DNA of 5,591 nt from a virus. This document shows, one piece after another, positions 1 to 5,591 of this stretch (position 1 is the first letter of the stretch; each line of letters begins with the position of its first letter). The stretch lies in IMG/VR virus record IMGVR_UViG_3300038540_000013, positions 1-5,591 of that record; one strand, 5' to 3'. Position numbers and translations under genes: made by a program. The notes beneath the pieces were generated by a model. It made no database searches and was not told the origin of the DNA. It saw only the letters and a list, made by a program, of their open reading frames with translations.

Positions 1-107
1 ATTACGACCAAATAAGAAATATATAATGAACAAAAAAAATGGGGGCAATGTCCCCATTTGCATTGATGAAAGGGTCAAATACGTACCTACAAAATGCGGA
101 AACTGTA
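1..107. repeat. Terminal direct repeat, copy 1 (circular-assembly overlap)
   Basis: Bases 1..107 are identical base-for-base to 5485..5591 at an offset of 5484 nt. The repeat runs through the rep start codon, as expected for a linearised circle. Confidence 0.95.
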
Positions 108-1111
108 TGGAATGCAGAAAAGCGAAAGCAAGAGAATGGAGAGTTAGATTACTAGAAGATCTAAAAGAACATAAAAACGGAATAATGATAACACTAACAT
201 TTAGCAATGAAAGTATAAGAGAATTAGCAACAGATAAATTAGTGAAAGGATTAACAGGATATACAAAGGATAATAAAATAGCAAAATTAGCATTAAGAAG
301 ATGGTTAGAAAGATGGAGACAAAGAAGGGGCAAAGATGGGAAAAGTCTAAGACATTGGTTAGTCACAGAATTAGGAAGCGGAGAAACGGAACATTTGCAC
401 CTACACGGAATAGTATGGACAAATGAAGGAATAGAAGAAATAAGAAAAAGATGGAAATACGGAAATGTATGGCATGGGACATGGGTAAATGAACAAACAA
501 TAAACTATAGTACAAAATATGTATACAAAATAGATGAAAAACATAAAAACTACAAAAGCATAGTTTTAACAAGTGATGGAATAGGAAAAAACTATTTAAA
601 CAGAACAGACAAAGATAAGAATACATACAAAGAAAATAAAACAAGAGAACACTACAAAACAAGTACAGGGCATAAAATAGCAATGCCAATATACTGGAGA
701 AATAAAATATACAATGAAGAAGAAAGGGAAAAATTATGGATAGAAAAGTTAGACAAAAAATTAAGATGGGTAGATGGGCAAAAAATAGACATAAGCAACG
801 GAGAGGAAGAATACTGGAAAGCACTAAAAGAAGCACAAAAGAAAAACAAAAAACTAGGATATGGAGATGATAATAAAGATTGGGATGCAATAAAATACGA
901 AAACGCATTAAGACAATTAAAAATAAACGAAAGAATAAAAAAAGGGTATATACGGGGCAATAGCGATACAAAAACAAAGGTACAGAACAACAGTAACACA
1001 GATAAAGATAGCAAAGGAAAAGCAAAAATTAACATAGATCAGCATAAGGAAAGTAAATACCCTACGGGTGGGGATAGCATAAAATGGGGGACAAGTAAGG
1101 AATGGGAATAA
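26..1111 (+). CDS. VP4: Replication initiation protein (Microviridae VP4 / phiX A-like HUH rolling-circle endonuclease)
   Basis: 361-aa ORF. It has the N-terminal Cys cluster CGNCMECRKAKAREW typical of microvirus VP4. RCR motif I is ITLTF (nt 188..202). The HUH motif is HLHLHGIVW (nt 392..418). The catalytic Tyr motif is YSTKYVYK (nt 506..529), and SDGIGKNYL lies downstream. The C-terminal ~70 aa are a K/N-rich low-complexity tail. Confidence 0.93.
   Translation: MNKKNGGNVPICIDERVKYVPTKCGNCMECRKAKAREWRVRLLEDLKEHKNGIMITLTFSNESIRELATDKLVKGLTGYTKDNKIAKLALRRWLERWRQRRGKDGKSLRHWLVTELGSGETEHLHLHGIVWTNEGIEEIRKRWKYGNVWHGTWVNEQTINYSTKYVYKIDEKHKNYKSIVLTSDGIGKNYLNRTDKDKNTYKENKTREHYKTSTGHKIAMPIYWRNKIYNEEEREKLWIEKLDKKLRWVDGQKIDISNGEEEYWKALKEAQKKNKKLGYGDDNKDWDAIKYENALRQLKINERIKKGYIRGNSDTKTKVQNNSNTDKDSKGKAKINIDQHKESKYPTGGDSIKWGTSKEWE
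37..59 (+). other. GC-cored stem-loop inside the rep 5' end (duplicated at 5521..5543 by the assembly overlap)
   Basis: AAATGGGGGC (37..46), loop AAT, GTCCCCATTT (50..59). That gives 10 pairs with one G:T wobble (45:51), or a perfect 8-bp stem (37..44/52..59) with a 7-nt loop. It starts 9 nt after the rep ATG. The G5/C4 runs stand out in an A-rich genome. Function is unknown. Confidence 0.5.
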
Positions 1112-1188
1112 ATAAAAATTGGAATTAAAAAAAAAATATAAATTAGCGTCAAGAAAAATTAACTGAATGTTAAACAAGAATTTAAAAC

Positions 1189-1560
1189 ATGAAACTAACA
1201 AAAAATTTCAAATCAGAAGAATTCGGGTGCAATGGGAAAGATTTACCAAAAAACCTAATCAAAAACTGTACAAGGGTTGCAGAAGTATTAGAAGTAATAA
1301 GAGAGTTCTTCCAAAAACCAGTTATAATATCTTCAGGATATAGAACATTAAGTCACAATAAAAAAATAGGAGGTAAAGAAAACAGCAAGCATTTAAAAGC
1401 ATTAGCAGCAGACTTTAGAATAAATGGCGTGAAGCATGACCGAATATCTAAGGCAATAGCTTTTCTAACAGGAATTGGAAAGCTAAAACAAATAGAATAC
1501 ACATACTTTAACGAAGAAAGAAACTTCACTCACATTCAACTATATGACAACAAAAACTAA
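1189..1560 (+). CDS. Zinc D-Ala-D-Ala carboxypeptidase-fold cell-wall peptidase (Peptidase_M15_3-like), putative endolysin
   Basis: 123-aa ORF. N-terminal LTKNFKSEEFGC matches the family hallmark (F..EF.C). The core SGYRTLSHNKKIGGKENSKHLKALAADF matches SGYR....N...GG..S.H..G.A.D with G replaced by A. C-terminal FTHIQL supplies the third ligand. Predicted Zn ligands are H68 (nt 1390..1392), D75 (1411..1413) and H115 (1531..1533). There is no signal peptide or TM segment. Confidence 0.85.
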   Translation: MKLTKNFKSEEFGCNGKDLPKNLIKNCTRVAEVLEVIREFFQKPVIISSGYRTLSHNKKIGGKENSKHLKALAADFRINGVKHDRISKAIAFLTGIGKLKQIEYTYFNEERNFTHIQLYDNKN

Positions 1561-1627
1561 TTGGAAAAAAATCTTAGCAGACATTCTTAAAATCATTGCA
1601 GGATTATTAGCAGGAACACAAATCTAA
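1544..1627 (+). CDS. Candidate micro-ORF, 27-aa amphipathic/hydrophobic peptide (MTTKTNWKKILADILKIIAGLLAGTQI)
   Basis: Hand-translated; it is below the ORF-track size cutoff. The ATG at 1544 lies 17 nt inside the 3' end of the peptidase gene in another frame, and the stop TAA is at 1625..1627. It fills most of the otherwise unexplained 1561..1639 gap. This is a T-enriched patch in an A-rich strand. Polar residues K9/D13/K16/G20 fall on one helical face. There is no obvious A-tract leader. Confidence 0.3.
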   Translation: MTTKTNWKKILADILKIIAGLLAGTQI

Positions 1628-1639
1628 CAACAATGAAAA

Positions 1640-1852
1640 ATGAGCACAGAAACAAAGGTTCACCGCTGGACAAGTAAATCTCAATACTTCAATATAGAAA
1701 ACGGGGAGGAGATAACTAAGCAAAACGCTTTAAAAAATTATAATATACTTAGAACAATCAAAAAAACTAAAATCGAATACAACAATGGATATATTGAATA
1801 CTGGCACGAATGCCAAAGAAAAAACCAGCTTAGTATCTGGGGAAATCCGTAA
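1640..1852 (+). CDS. Hypothetical protein (70 aa, mildly basic), ORFan to my eye
   Basis: A + strand ORF that fits tightly into the gene array, with an A-rich leader (caatgaaaaATG) like the other genes. I recognise no motif. Confidence 0.55.
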   Translation: MSTETKVHRWTSKSQYFNIENGEEITKQNALKNYNILRTIKKTKIEYNNGYIEYWHECQRKNQLSIWGNP

Positions 1853-1865
1853 AGGAGAAGAATTA

Positions 1866-2084
1866 ATGAAAAGCGAAATGATACCTAACACACCATTTGT
1901 AGCAAAATGGATTGAAACAGTGGGATGGTTCGCAGTATGCGGAAAGTACAGACTAACAGAACCATTTGAAACAGAAGCTGAACTAATAGCACATGTGGAG
2001 AAACGACCGTGGGACATGATCATAGCTTTAATGAACATAGTACAAATAGAAAACTTAAACTTAATAGAAGAAACAACTAAATAA
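1866..2084 (+). CDS. Hypothetical protein (72 aa from ATG 1866; ORF open from ATG 1785 = 99 aa), acidic
   Basis: ATG 1866 is preceded by AAAGGAG (1851..1857) at 8-nt spacing. It starts just after the upstream ORF stop (1850..1852), so the genes do not overlap. The 1785 start would overlap the previous ORF by 68 nt. I recognise no motif. Confidence 0.55.
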   Translation: MKSEMIPNTPFVAKWIETVGWFAVCGKYRLTEPFETEAELIAHVEKRPWDMIIALMNIVQIENLNLIEETTK

Positions 2085-2092
2085 TAAAAAAA

Positions 2093-4048
2093 ATGACAAT
2101 GAAAGTAAACATAGGCGGGAACCGCTTAGGAAGCGGAAGCAAAATGAAAGTAGATATGCGGACATATAACCGCAGCAATCACAACTTAAGTACAATAGTA
2201 AGAACAACAATGGCACCCGGGACACTAGTGCCATTTTTAAGTTTAGTCGGACTACCAGGGGACACATTTGACATAAACCTAGATTGCGATGTGATGACAC
2301 ATCCAACAATAGGGCCGTTATTCGGAAGCTATAAAGTACAATTAGACGTGTTCACAGTACCAGTAAGATTATACAACGGAAAACTACACAACAACGCTCT
2401 AAACATAGGATTAAACATGAGCAGTATAAAACTGCCATTGATTGAAATGGAAGCAAGCCCGTTAGACATAACAAAAGATCCTGACAACCAACAAATAAAC
2501 CCTAGTTGTATATTCAAATACTTGGGAATAAGCGGACTAGGTAGAGGAACAGACACAACACTAAAAAGGTACTTTAATGCAATACCATATATAGGATATT
2601 GGGACATATATAAAAATTTCTACGCGAACAAACAAGAAGAAATAGGAGCAGTAATACATAACGTACCAAATTCAACTGCTAAAAGTATAGACGAAGTAAG
2701 GCTAGTATGGGTAGGAACAGGGAATAATGTATTTCCCGAAGCACCAATAACAGTAGGACTAGACGTAGACGTAATAGGATTAGATTATATGGAAATAGAC
2801 TATATAGGAACACCACCAACTCTAAGTCAAATAATAATAAATACAGATCTAGGAGAATTTAGTGTAGAAGATATGTTTCTAACAAAAACAGATACAGCAG
2901 GAACAATAAAATGTTCAGGGAATATAAGTGGAGGAGTGTGGATAAATTGGAGATATGCAGATCCAACAGACCTCGGAGATGAAGTACCACAAGTATACAC
3001 ATTCCCGCTAGAAAACATAGACACAATGAGACAATCATTCTTATCAAACACGTTCCTAACAACACCAGTACTAATAACAGATGAAGTAATAGAACCATTT
3101 GGTCTACCATTAAAAAAAACAGGAACGGGGGAAAGTACAAGATGGAGTAAACTAACAAACCTAGAAGGACTAGCATTAAAAACATATCAGAGTGATATGT
3201 TTAATAACTGGTTAGAAACGGAATGGATAGATGGAACAAACGGAATTGCAGAAATAACAAGTGTTGATACAACAGGAAACAGTTTCACAATAGACGCCTT
3301 AAACCTAGCAAGTAAACTATACACACTATTAAACAGGGTTGCAATGAGTGATGGCACATACAAAAGCTGGATAGAAACAGTATATACAAGTGGAGGATTT
3401 TGGAGAGCAGAAACACCAATGTATATAGGAGGATTAAGTAAAGAACTAGTATTCCAAGAGGTAATAAGCAACGCAGAAACATCAGATCAACCACTAGGAA
3501 CATTAGCAGGTAGAGGAAAACTAACTAACAAACACAAAGGAGGTCATATCATAGTAAAGCCTGACGAAATAATGTATATCATGGGAATAATAAGCATAAC
3601 ACCAAGAATAGACTATAGTCAGGGAAACACATGGGATATGAATTTACTAACAATGGATGACTTCCATAAACCTCAACTAGATGGAATAGGATTCCAAGAC
3701 CTAATAACTGATGGAATGGCATATTGGGACACAACAGTTGATGACGAAGGAAATGTAACATATAAAAGCGCAGGTAAACAACCAGCATGGTTAAACTACA
3801 TGACAAACGTAAACAGAACGTATGGAAACTTCGCAATAAAAAACAATGAAATGTTTATGACATTAAACAGAAGATATGAATTTGACGCAACAGATGGCAT
3901 AGTTGATCTAACAACATACGTAGATCCGATAAAATTCAATGATATATTTGCACAAACAGACCGAGGAGCTCAAAACTTTTGGGTACAAATTGGAGCAGAT
4001 ATAGAAGCAAGAAGAGTCATGAGTGCAAAAGTAATACCAAACTTATAA
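2093..4048 (+). CDS. VP1: Major capsid protein (Microviridae VP1 / F-like)
   Basis: 651-aa ORF. N-terminal RSNHNLSTIVRTTMAPGTLVPF..LPGDTF...DVFTVPVRLY matches the conserved microvirus capsid N-terminus. Later blocks also match: AIPYIGYWDIYKNFY, LASKLYTLLNRVAMSDGTYKSWIETVY....PMYIGG, PLGTLAGRG, IMGIISITPRIDYSQG and KPQLDGIGFQDL. An alternative start is ATG 2099. Confidence 0.95.
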   Translation: MTMKVNIGGNRLGSGSKMKVDMRTYNRSNHNLSTIVRTTMAPGTLVPFLSLVGLPGDTFDINLDCDVMTHPTIGPLFGSYKVQLDVFTVPVRLYNGKLHNNALNIGLNMSSIKLPLIEMEASPLDITKDPDNQQINPSCIFKYLGISGLGRGTDTTLKRYFNAIPYIGYWDIYKNFYANKQEEIGAVIHNVPNSTAKSIDEVRLVWVGTGNNVFPEAPITVGLDVDVIGLDYMEIDYIGTPPTLSQIIINTDLGEFSVEDMFLTKTDTAGTIKCSGNISGGVWINWRYADPTDLGDEVPQVYTFPLENIDTMRQSFLSNTFLTTPVLITDEVIEPFGLPLKKTGTGESTRWSKLTNLEGLALKTYQSDMFNNWLETEWIDGTNGIAEITSVDTTGNSFTIDALNLASKLYTLLNRVAMSDGTYKSWIETVYTSGGFWRAETPMYIGGLSKELVFQEVISNAETSDQPLGTLAGRGKLTNKHKGGHIIVKPDEIMYIMGIISITPRIDYSQGNTWDMNLLTMDDFHKPQLDGIGFQDLITDGMAYWDTTVDDEGNVTYKSAGKQPAWLNYMTNVNRTYGNFAIKNNEMFMTLNRRYEFDATDGIVDLTTYVDPIKFNDIFAQTDRGAQNFWVQIGADIEARRVMSAKVIPNL

Positions 4049-4052
4049 AAAA

Positions 4053-4391
4053 ATGAAAGCATACAAATTAAACAAAAGTGTCAAAACGTCACTAAGAGTG
4101 AACGAAAGCATAGAAGGCGAAACAATAGAGCAAAAAATAGAGCGAATTATAAACAATAAAGAGCCTATAAAAGATGGAGCGCCTATAATATTCACAGAAA
4201 GAAAAGATGGAGTAAGACCCGAACACGACATAAGAACAGATAGATGGGATGTAGCAATAGATATGTCAGACAAGGGAGCAAAAGACGCTTTAGCTAAAAG
4301 AAAGGCATACTTGCAAGGAGATAAAAATGACGGCAAAGCCGAATCAACACATGGTGGAGATAAACCATCAGGAGAGGTAATCAGCACGTAA
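4053..4391 (+). CDS. Small conserved-looking virion-module protein, possibly internal scaffolding (VP3-like)
   Basis: 112-aa ORF starting 4 nt after the VP1 stop, behind the same ATAAAAAA leader. The block EPIKDGAPIIFTERKDGVRPEHDIRTDRWDVA resembles a block I recall from small proteins of gut microviruses. The functional call is inferred from size, charge and position next to VP1. Confidence 0.7.
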   Translation: MKAYKLNKSVKTSLRVNESIEGETIEQKIERIINNKEPIKDGAPIIFTERKDGVRPEHDIRTDRWDVAIDMSDKGAKDALAKRKAYLQGDKNDGKAESTHGGDKPSGEVIST

Positions 4392-4406
4392 AATCAATCA
4401 AAAATT

Positions 4407-4458
4407 AAAGAGTGCTACGCATGTGTTCTATATTATCAAGAAACAGCTAGCACTCTTT
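4407..4458 (+). other. Long imperfect stem-loop in the main non-coding region (candidate terminator/attenuator or complementary-strand origin)
   Basis: The outer stem is a perfect 11 bp: AAAGAGTGCTA (4407..4417) with TAGCACTCTTT (4448..4458). The inner extension pairs 4419-4420/4446-4447, 4422-4424/4443-4445 and 4426-4429/4439-4442, with single-nt bulges at 4418, 4421 and 4425. The loop is 9 nt (4430..4438). Total is about 20 bp. The 3' arm runs into TTTT (4456..4459). Confidence 0.45.
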
Positions 4459-4473
4459 TAAAAAAGAGCGAAA

Positions 4474-4566
4474 ATGAAAACAACAAATAAAGAAACAATA
4501 ATAGGAAGCATAATAACATTAGTTATACTAACATTAATAACCTTAATAATAAAAAAATGGAATTAG
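4474..4566 (+). CDS. Candidate micro-ORF, 30-aa single-pass membrane peptide (MKTTNKETIIGSIITLVILTLITLIIKKWN)
   Basis: Hand-translated; it is below the ORF-track size cutoff. The leader gagcgaaaaATG is A-rich like the other genes. An 18-residue uncharged core IIGSIITLVILTLITLII is flanked by K/E at the N-terminus and KKWN at the C-terminus. The stop TAG at 4564..4566 overlaps the VP2 start (4557) by 10 nt. This is a locally T-enriched segment in an A-rich strand. Confidence 0.4.
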   Translation: MKTTNKETIIGSIITLVILTLITLIIKKWN

Positions 4567-5468
4567 AAAAAATACTAGGAATGACAAGTCAAGGACTAGG
4601 AGCAATTCAACAAGTAGGGGATATATTAGGAATAGGACACAAAAAACAAGACAAAAGACAGTTAGAACAACAAGAAAAATTAAGTGAACAACAAGCAAGA
4701 ATACAAAATCAAGCACAGATGAAAATGTGGGAAGATACAAATTATTCTGCACAAGTAGAACAACTAAATAAAGCAGGGCTAAACCCCGGACTATTATACG
4801 GCAAAGGAGGAGGAGGTGGAACTACAGTAGGAGGAGGAATAAGTGGAGGACAAGCAGCAAATGCAGCAGCAACACAAACAGCAAATACACAAAGTAGAGG
4901 AATGGCAATTCAACAAGGAATGATGATGGCACAACTAGAAGTTATGAAAAGCCAAGCAAATAAAAACGATGCAGAAGCAGAAGCAATAAGAGGATATAAA
5001 GCCACAGAATCGGGGGCAAGTGCAGCAGAAAGCGCAAGCAGAAAAGCAAGCATAGACTTCCAAAATGAATTAAATAAAACTATAGGAATAAAAGACATGG
5101 CTGAAAGATATAGCTGGGCATCCGATATGACTGCAATACAAAGCCAAAAAATGAACGCAGAATATGAAGCATGGAAAACGGCAGGATTTGAGGGAAAATC
5201 ATTTGACGATCCAAATAGTCCAATGGCAAAGGCAATGAAGGCAGGATATGAAAAAACAATCCAAGATCTAGAAAAAGCAAAATTAGAAAACAACGCACAA
5301 AAGGCAACAAACGTAGTAAAAAATTTCGAAGCAGAATTAGCAAGTCAAGGAATACACCCACATAGTCCTTGGTGGACAAAACTCATAGGAGATATGTTAG
5401 AAAAGGTAGGAATAATGGATATGATAAAAGGAGGACAAAAAGAGGTAAAACAACAAATAAGTCAATAA
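4557..5468 (+). CDS. VP2: Minor capsid / DNA pilot protein (Microviridae VP2, phiX H-like)
   Basis: 303-aa ORF. It has the conserved-type KAGLNPGLLYG motif (nt 4773..4802), followed by a Gly-rich tract GKGGGGGTTVGGGISGG (about 4800..4850). The flanks are Q/A/E-rich and helical/coiled-coil-like. Size and position match VP2 of non-phiX microviruses. Confidence 0.8.
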   Translation: MELEKILGMTSQGLGAIQQVGDILGIGHKKQDKRQLEQQEKLSEQQARIQNQAQMKMWEDTNYSAQVEQLNKAGLNPGLLYGKGGGGGTTVGGGISGGQAANAAATQTANTQSRGMAIQQGMMMAQLEVMKSQANKNDAEAEAIRGYKATESGASAAESASRKASIDFQNELNKTIGIKDMAERYSWASDMTAIQSQKMNAEYEAWKTAGFEGKSFDDPNSPMAKAMKAGYEKTIQDLEKAKLENNAQKATNVVKNFEAELASQGIHPHSPWWTKLIGDMLEKVGIMDMIKGGQKEVKQQISQ

Positions 5469-5484
5469 TGTGCATATATCCAAC

Positions 5485-5591
5485 ATTACGACCAAATAAG
5501 AAATATATAATGAACAAAAAAAATGGGGGCAATGTCCCCATTTGCATTGATGAAAGGGTCAAATACGTACCTACAAAATGCGGAAACTGTA
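5485..5591. repeat. Terminal direct repeat, copy 2 (circular-assembly overlap)
   Basis: Identical to 1..107. It contains the rep leader, the rep ATG at 5510 and the hairpin copy at 5521..5543. Confidence 0.95.
5510..5591 (+). CDS. VP4: 5' fragment of rep/VP4 (same gene as 26..1111, re-read across the circle junction; truncated by window end)
   Basis: ATGAACAAAAAAAATGGGGGCAATGTCCCC... is identical to 26..107. It is an overlap artefact, not a second gene. Confidence 0.6.
   Translation, partial: MNKKNGGNVPICIDERVKYVPTKCGNC

Follow-up and report, generated by a model that had tools for sequence, protein, structure and literature searches.

Microviruses are among the commonest phages of animal guts, and the small genes described here bear on the open question of how members outside the phiX174 group escape from the host cell. 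Lysis in non-phiX microviruses is unresolved, and no lysis gene is known for most of the clade (PMC3394797, PMC9239249). Small open reading frames (ORFs) with a transmembrane domain (TMD) are the usual lysis genes of small single-stranded DNA (ssDNA) and single-stranded RNA (ssRNA) phages; their location changes, and between closely related phages their identity drops to 38-47% (PMC7693330). Such single-gene lysis (Sgl) genes of very small lytic phages evolve fast, vary in position and mostly go unannotated (PMC7693330, PMC12506998). The subject of this study is a 30-codon micro-ORF at positions 4474-4566 of a viral DNA stretch of 5,591 nucleotides (nt) (IMG/VR virus record IMGVR_UViG_3300038540_000013, positions 1 to 5,591; this whole stretch is referred to as the window), where it lies at the start of the gene for VP2, the DNA pilot protein. 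The micro-ORF very probably encodes a real single-helix membrane peptide, not an accident of composition, and this small phage membrane peptide occupies a variable slot beside a conserved hairpin of an Alpavirinae-like microvirus.

The micro-ORF product resembles four described kinds of protein at most, and is a member of none. Protein E of phiX174 (Bullavirinae), an inhibitor of MraY, is likewise a small microvirus membrane protein with one N-terminal transmembrane (TM) helix, and it lyses alone without wall degradation; however, E is 91 amino acids (aa) long, is overprinted in the scaffold gene D and needs a conserved Pro as well as SlyD, whereas the window ORF encodes 30 aa, is intergenic except for the 10 nt of VP2 that it overlaps, and has no Pro and no Pfam match. 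LysM (SglM) of ssRNA phage M, a MurJ inhibitor of 37 aa, and the metagenomic Sgl set are similar in size and have a single TMD, but belong to another virus realm and share no sequence similarity with the window peptide; in addition, the window phage has a Bacteroidota host and a peptidase cassette, and a stand-alone lysis gene is not required. The holins and pinholins of tailed phages (lambda S105, S21 68, T4 T) have 1-3 TMDs and a charged cytoplasmic tail, and their genes normally adjoin the endolysin gene. These small proteins build up in the inner membrane, then permeabilise or depolarise it, and so release or activate the endolysin. The window ORF product shares with them at least one TM helix, as predicted, but its tail has four residues, it lies 2.9 kb from the peptidase gene, it matches no holin model and it does not co-occur with an endolysin across relatives; the endolysin-adjacent position (the peptidase gene ends at 1560) is held by a different micro-ORF at 1544-1627. 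Finally, type I toxins (TisB, 29 aa; Hok/Gef, ~50 aa; Fst, 33 aa) are single-helix peptides that depolarise the inner membrane and are chromosomal or plasmid-borne and controlled by antisense RNA. Thirty residues are therefore enough for a membrane lesion, but no type I toxin family model matched the window peptide. Searches with Pfam, PHROG and NCBIfam models gave no match of the 30-aa peptide to holin, phiX E or toxin families, and even at E <= 10 returned just weak matches to families of unknown function; the kinship with holins and phiX E suggested in a preliminary description of this locus thus found no backing.

The micro-ORF begins with an ATG at 4474-4476 on the + strand and ends with a TAG at 4564-4566. 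Its product, MKTTNKETIIGSIITLVILTLITLIIKKWN, has a short polar N-terminus, followed by 19 uncharged residues (8-26) and a KKWN tail. At the junction with VP2, an A7 run (4551-4557) leads into the VP2 ATG (4557-4559), so that the micro-ORF and VP2 overlap by 10 nt (4557-4566). The VP2 start at 4557 is supported by the residues E-K-I-(L)-G-M ahead of Met9, which are common to the window VP2 and that of a relative, L006. The 20 nt upstream of the micro-ORF are A-rich and contain no Shine-Dalgarno sequence, as is also the case for Rep, VP1, the VP3-like gene and VP2. Every gene of the window genome lies on the + strand, and to our knowledge microviruses do not use the - strand. The body of the micro-ORF stayed open in 4% of mononucleotide shuffles and in ~10% of random sequences of genome composition; when a hydrophobicity of KD17 >= 2.8 was required as well, none of 200,000 shuffles and none of 200,000 random sequences qualified. 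Thirteen of the 20 T in the body lie at codon position 2 (chi-square p = 0.003), and the Ile, Leu, Thr and Lys codons are those preferred by the genome (ATA, TTA/CTA, ACA and AAA). The peptide (KD17 = 2.8) is the most hydrophobic + strand micro-ORF product of the window genome, and this level of hydrophobicity was reached by just 8 of the 1054 + strand ORFs of 20-80 aa in 95 related genomes. AlphaFold2 modelled it as one helix spanning residues 3-29 (mean predicted local distance difference test score, pLDDT, 90.8); the helix has an Eisenberg mean hydrophobicity of 0.92 and a low hydrophobic moment of 0.20, which places it in the transmembrane class. The predicted helix would be expected to insert into the inner membrane. 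Together with the same-slot counterparts described below, the ORF reading, the shuffles and the structure prediction leave both the reality of the micro-ORF as a gene and the membrane location of its product well supported.

The exact 30-aa peptide is absent from ~15 billion predicted proteins, and the micro-ORF can thus be called unannotated and missed by gene callers; none of five micro-peptides tested, in fact, was present in that collection. A tblastn search of the peptide against GenBank phages gave no match, probably as a result of low-complexity masking, and a blastn search with 4400-4600 returned just hairpin matches and compositional AT-rich matches, the micro-ORF region being AT-rich and of low complexity. 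The observation made in the preliminary description is therefore confirmed: the coordinates, the product and the VP2 overlap are as it gave them, the leader does resemble those of the major genes, the frame does not look accidental by hydrophobicity or by T at codon position 2, a single-pass TM peptide is predicted, and the gene is unannotated. Its interpretation as a whole is partly supported, as detailed below.

The position of the micro-ORF was compared among 111 non-redundant clade loci gathered with a VP3-like profile and the hairpin motif, of which 95 were of genome size. The gap between the VP3-like gene and VP2 normally measures 64-145 nt and holds just the hairpin and leader element; no ORF occupies the slot in ~95% of the wider clade. 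After the hairpin comes a conserved box, (A)nGAGCGAAA(A)ATG, with the leader GAGCGAAA preceding the start codon. The ATG of this leader box is the first codon of VP2 in most relatives (L001, L003, L234 and many IMG/VR genomes) and the start of the micro-ORF in the window, where VP2 starts 83 nt past the micro-ORF start, behind its own A7 run. Because the same ATG starts VP2 in most relatives, the micro-ORF has been inserted between VP2 and a conserved initiation site. A single-helix slot ORF running from the conserved ATG was found in four genomes: the window (30 aa, C-terminal tail KKWN), L002 (31 aa, MKAGIEKNIIIGIIILAIISLIMVIKISTNN, tail KISTNN), L176 (32 aa, MDNRDYIIDKAGAILIITLLITVLILALAQIK, tail K) and L026 (44 aa, ending in TTTFVIIILAILALIVLKGNNNNKQ, tail KGNNNNKQ). 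In all four, T is biased to codon position 2 (p = 6e-5 to 3e-3) and the ORF beat every shuffle; their stops lie anywhere from 10 nt within VP2 to 22 nt ahead of its ATG, and for slot ORFs overall the spacing to the VP2 ATG ranges from -11 to +22 nt. The same slot holds unrelated soluble ORFs in L004 (53 aa, 58-219), L006 (53 aa, 75-236), L236 (57 aa, 66-239) and L074 (58 aa), each running from the conserved ATG to the VP2 start, and these soluble ORFs matched no known family. Among the 13 closest VP2 relatives (44-64% identity), two contain a TM ORF, three a soluble ORF and seven an empty slot, and one is cut by the contig end. The VP2 proteins of L176 and L026 are distant from that of the window (29% identity, and 45% over a partial match, respectively), which indicates that the TM solution originated, or was taken up, on more than one occasion.

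The slot peptides of the window and L002 are identical at 11 of 30 residues, with a ratio of nonsynonymous to synonymous substitution rates (dN/dS) of ~1.2; this was the sole pair available for dN/dS, and the value is saturated and uninformative. A VP2-based scan of IMG/VR found no relatives, and a scan with the L026 VP2 found L026 alone; dN/dS between close relatives was therefore impossible. In this pair the frame, its limits and its hydrophobic character are kept, and the sequence is not. Conservation at the junction of the VP3-like gene and VP2, the check proposed in the preliminary description, thus holds in that an intact TM ORF is present in L002, L176 and L026, but not in that the slot is empty in most relatives, and conservation of the sequence itself did not hold up. 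The slot next to the hairpin acts as a hot spot of gene swapping, and the micro-ORF is an accessory gene in this hot spot, not a conserved core gene.

There are several potential explanations for the role of the peptide. The one that we tentatively favour is that of a stand-alone lysis-related effector acting independently of the M15 peptidase encoded in the same genome. Ribosomes would initiate at the ATG that, by comparison, starts VP2 in most relatives, presumably by way of the A-rich, Shine-Dalgarno-free leader typical of Bacteroidota hosts, and would stop 10 nt past the VP2 ATG, so that VP2 translation may be coupled to that of the micro-ORF; the 10-nt overlap would fit coupling by termination and reinitiation. 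The 30-residue peptide, predicted to form one very hydrophobic helix, would enter the inner membrane and act there without the M15 peptidase, which would pair with the product of 1544-1627. It may then oligomerise and depolarise the membrane, in the way of a minimal holin or type I toxin, or, in the manner of phiX174 E and LysM, it may bind the TM region of a host protein for envelope synthesis. The features by which single-gene lysis candidates have been recognised (PMC7693330) are present in the ORF: 30 codons, where at least 25 are asked for, a predicted TMD and a plausible start, the last without a Shine-Dalgarno sequence, as suits the host type. A more far-reaching version of this reading would make the peptide the smallest known stand-alone lysis protein, from a Bacteroidales microvirus. 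It would form a minimal pore, depolarise the membrane or, as a 'protein antibiotic', bind a membrane enzyme that supplies cell-wall precursors, and it would have arisen repeatedly at one hot spot next to a putative replication origin; we regard that version as doubtful.

Several points weigh against a lysis role, which we infer. Purifying selection is undetectable at the sequence level between the window and L002 (dN/dS ~1.2, 11/30 residues). The slot is empty in most relatives and filled by unrelated soluble ORFs in close ones, a pattern that looks like dispensable cargo, not like an essential lysis gene. In the census made here, an intergenic TM micro-ORF is lacking in 70 of the 95 genomes, and a peptidase is present in just 17 of them, so that lysis is possible by other means. 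In addition, the cassette of peptidase and micro-ORF in the window would make a second lysis effector redundant. In a screen of ssRNA phages, most TMD candidate ORFs gave no lytic phenotype in E. coli (PMC7693330). Finally, the 30-aa helix is uniformly hydrophobic (moment 0.20), whereas the helices of many hole-formers are amphipathic.

Superinfection exclusion, or some other modulation of the host membrane, is an alternative to be taken seriously, if on balance unlikely: an inner-membrane peptide could block DNA delivery by related microviruses or retune a host protein, and its gene would be a dispensable 'moron'. Such a role would suit the accessory distribution of the slot ORFs and the swapping of unrelated cargo in the slot among close relatives, and a clade prophage in Dysgonomonas sp. 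521 represents a carried state in which exclusion pays. The uniform hydrophobicity of the helix also resembles small membrane-protein binders over pore formers. The nearest precedent is the hypervariable region of the gokushovirus pilot protein, which, according to the summary of Kirchberger et al. 2021 PNAS in PMC10002423, confers superinfection exclusion; it too is a rapidly changing element at the pilot gene in prophage-capable microviruses. However, as that summary describes it, this known microvirus determinant is part of VP2 itself, whereas the window has a separate upstream ORF. Furthermore, the layout couples the micro-ORF to a late structural gene, with no obvious position for expression during lysogeny, and the family searches revealed no homology to known exclusion proteins.

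The preliminary description had proposed that the peptide supplies the membrane lesion for the M15 peptidase, and this would make it a holin, or part of a holin/antiholin pair, that gives the enzyme access to the cell wall. The peptidase gene (1189-1560, + strand) encodes a putative endolysin of 123 aa of the M15_3 type (PF08291, E = 1.5e-18; phrog_894 endolysin, E = 3.9e-29), whose Zn-ligand positions H68, D75 and H115 do not vary across the alignment. Being of the cytoplasmic type without a signal sequence, it is compatible with a need for a holin, and no other + strand micro-ORF of its genome encodes a product as hydrophobic as the 30-aa peptide. The distribution of these genes in the clade argues otherwise. 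A local hidden Markov model search found M15-like peptidases in 17 of the 95 clade genomes, and 16 of the 17 peptidase genes are followed by an ORF of 27-37 aa, amphipathic or TM-like, that starts -35 to +34 nt from the peptidase stop, against a background of 28/484 for such ORFs after other genes (Fisher p = 1e-17). The slot, on the other hand, contains no ORF in 16 of the 17 peptidase genomes, and neither of the two complete genomes besides the window with a TM ORF in the slot, L026 and L176, encodes a peptidase or lysozyme (L002, a 1.8-kb fragment, lies outside the peptidase scoring). The natural partner of the M15 peptidase would thus be the product of 1544-1627 and not that of 4474-4566. 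In addition, the micro-ORF lies 2.9 kb from the peptidase gene, no holin family matched, and what may correspond to the hydrophilic C-terminal tail typical of holins is just KKWN. The 27-aa peptide could serve otherwise, for example by disrupting the outer membrane, in which case the slot peptide could still be the holin; even so, the micro-ORF 4474-4566 is probably not the holin of the peptidase, and we consider such a role quite improbable.

The micro-ORF at 1544-1627 (+ strand), which overlaps the peptidase stop by 17 nt, encodes an amphipathic peptide of 27 aa, MTTKTNWKKILADILKIIAGLLAGTQI, that aligns without gaps with seven peptidase-linked peptides at 37-52% identity. The family shares a basic N-terminus and the pattern NWxxLxxEILKVxxGFxAGTQ(L/V) followed by the stop, and its relatives are found in L122, L133, L150, L117, L184, L140, L145 and L128. 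In L021, L028, L041, L051 and L103 this place after the peptidase gene is taken by members of a second family, with a pattern like MENFPIxEIxTAxMALISYILGRISKK. The peptidase-linked family is amphipathic, with a mean hydrophobicity of ~0.6 and a moment of 0.3-0.5; the 1544-1627 peptide is cationic at its N-terminus and gave a weak, sub-threshold Mastoparan match, and a near match to NF047374 (E = 0.03, below cut-off) concerned the peptidase-linked micro-ORF of L041 and not the 30-aa ORF of the window. The peptide of 1544-1627 is a candidate for a minimal holin-like or membrane-disrupting endolysin partner. It comes from the same genome as the slot peptide, and both belong to intergenic + strand ORFs that gene callers missed, with the linked family in a similar size class of 27-37 aa; however, that family is amphipathic, conserved and tied to the peptidase (16/17), whereas the slot ORF product is uniformly hydrophobic, poorly conserved and untied. 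The rule that a peptidase gene comes with a micro-ORF is specific to the clade: outside it, 4 of 34 other peptidase-bearing contigs of <7 kb, some of which may be tailed-phage fragments, had a TM ORF adjoining the peptidase. A strong Shine-Dalgarno sequence (AAGGAGGTG) precedes the peptidase-linked micro-ORF in L028, L041, L103 and L051, in contrast to the A-rich leaders of the window, and this hints at horizontal acquisition of the cassette or at a different host group.

It is very unlikely that the peptide has no function at all and that the micro-ORF is a coupling upstream ORF or spacer carrying ribosomes from the leader to a displaced VP2 start, or a young unexpressed ORF: the dN/dS of ~1.2 and low identity between the window and L002, the span of all the differing slot ORFs from the leader ATG to the VP2 start, and an AT-rich, low-complexity region whose BLAST matches are compositional only would agree with this, but a spacer needs no hydrophobic helix, hydrophobicity and T at position 2 recur in four genomes of which at least two are distant, most genomes have no insert of any kind, and TM micro-ORFs are enriched in intergenic space throughout the clade.

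This enrichment was seen on the + strands of the 95 genomes, where TM-like micro-ORFs made up 27 of 410 intergenic but 3 of 663 embedded micro-ORFs (15-fold; Fisher p = 3e-9). At least one intergenic TM-like micro-ORF is present in 25 of the 95 genomes, mostly after Rep. TM ORFs outside the peptidase cassette were found in 19 of 78 peptidase-less genomes and in 1 of 17 peptidase genomes, a trend that is not significant (p = 0.11). Standard gene calling therefore overlooks a layer of genes for membrane peptides of 27-44 aa in one large Bacteroidales-associated clade, and two kinds can be separated, a conserved amphipathic family linked to M15 and the very hydrophobic stand-alone peptides. Peptides of both kinds are short, readily synthesised candidates, which makes lysis in non-phiX microviruses and superinfection exclusion directly testable; if active, they would offer starting points for minimal peptides against Bacteroidota that act on membranes or block cell-wall pathways. 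Similar peptides are labelled just as hypothetical proteins in GenBank records of another microvirus lineage. One of the blastn matches led to the unrelated bajarodmic virus 228 (L318, PQ006329.1), in which two small TM proteins of 50 and 32 aa, annotated as 'hypothetical proteins', are encoded directly behind the pilot gene (ORFs 1167-1319 and 1285-1383); homology to the window micro-ORF is not demonstrable, but their presence indicates that membrane micro-proteins near the pilot gene extend beyond the clade.

The window phage is an Alpavirinae-like microvirus, a gut-type ssDNA phage. Positions 1-107 are repeated exactly at 5485-5591, and the window is therefore a circular genome of 5484 nt with the region of the Rep start read twice. 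Apart from the features already described, the + strand encodes Rep (26-1111), two overlapping small ORFs (1640-1852 and 1785-2084), VP1 (2093-4048), a conserved VP3-like protein of 112 aa (4053-4391) and VP2, the DNA pilot protein of 303 aa (4557-5468; phrog_8689 pilot protein, E = 9e-12; 141 homologues). No close relative of the window was found in GenBank, where the best phage matches had ~68% nucleotide identity over parts of the genome. A complete prophage of the clade, with Rep, VP1, VP3-like gene, VP2 and hairpin element, is present in Dysgonomonas sp. 521 (L210, NZ_QVMO01000010.1, about 700-5500); its Rep and VP1 are 52% and 48% identical to those of the window. The signature hairpin element of the clade also occurs in a metagenome-assembled genome of Paludibacteraceae (L227). 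These two occurrences indicate that the hosts of the clade are Bacteroidales, an assignment made from sequence with which the A-rich leaders lacking a Shine-Dalgarno sequence agree, and the integration in Dysgonomonas points to the existence of a prophage state.

The hairpin (4407-4458) lies between the VP3-like gene and the micro-ORF and marks the 5' edge of the variable slot. It consists of the arms AAAGAGTGCTA and TAGCACTCTTT and a 30-nt loop, with a DNA fold of -13.1 kcal/mol (z = -3.8), and is followed by the conserved A-rich leader TAAAAAAGAGCGAAA (4459-4473), which comparison with relatives shows to run up to the start codon. The loop holds a near-invariant motif found throughout the clade, (T)ACGCATGTGTTCTATATTATCAAG, also written as TACGCRYGTRYTMTWTATTATSAA, TACGCATGTRTTCTATATTATSAAG and TACGCNNGTNNTNTNTATTATSAA. 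The form TACGCRYGTRYTMTWTATTATSAA occurred in 23 contigs from IMG/VR, 81 from metagenomes and 48 from genomes. Many of the occurrences in the last two sets are due to chance and lie outside microviruses, and 58 distinct microvirus elements were kept (window 4407-4473, L001-L110 and others). Stem sequences differ among these 58 elements, and the stems were found by a stem search of each sequence, as RNAalifold on 24 elements misaligned the 3' arms and missed the main stem. Downstream of the hairpin, a T-run/A-run palindrome and then the GCGCGAAAA box precede VP2 throughout the clade. The hairpin may be an origin-like or terminator-like element. Its loop contains a TATTAT core that recalls the nick sites of HUH Rep proteins; by analogy the hairpin may be a replication origin, but a terminator or a complementary-strand origin is just as possible. 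No copy of TAnnTTTG, the -7 promoter motif of Bacteroides, lay near the slot, and the motif showed no excess over chance.

At the other edge of the slot, the A7 run (4551-4557) forms an A_AAA_AAA heptamer in the frame of the micro-ORF, directly 5' of the VP2 ATG. A programmed -1 frameshift on this run, which would fuse the helix to VP2, was considered and rejected. In L002, L176 and L026 the TM slot ORF stops 2-22 nt short of the VP2 ATG, and most genes of this genome have an A-run ahead of them, so that the run is probably just the VP2 leader. The possibility that the micro-ORF is a split-off N-terminal helix of VP2 was likewise rejected, as VP2 N-termini are alike with or without a micro-ORF.

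Two further observations concern the hairpin loop. Six independent contigs of relatives (L004, L005, L234, L236, L237 and L325; Logan) start inside it, for example with (T)GGTACGC, ACGCATG or TATTCTATATT. These starts likely reflect branching of the assembly graph at conserved k-mers, with several microviruses per sample; a real DNA end at a nick site is a lesser possibility. Additionally, the metagenome contigs L057, L068 and L094 contain clustered regularly interspaced short palindromic repeats (CRISPR), in arrays of 99-193 repeats that end in CTTAGGAATTGAAAC with a period of 65-67 nt, and a spacer in these arrays is identical to the conserved loop of the hairpin, which indicates that hosts target the least variable stretch of the phages of this clade.

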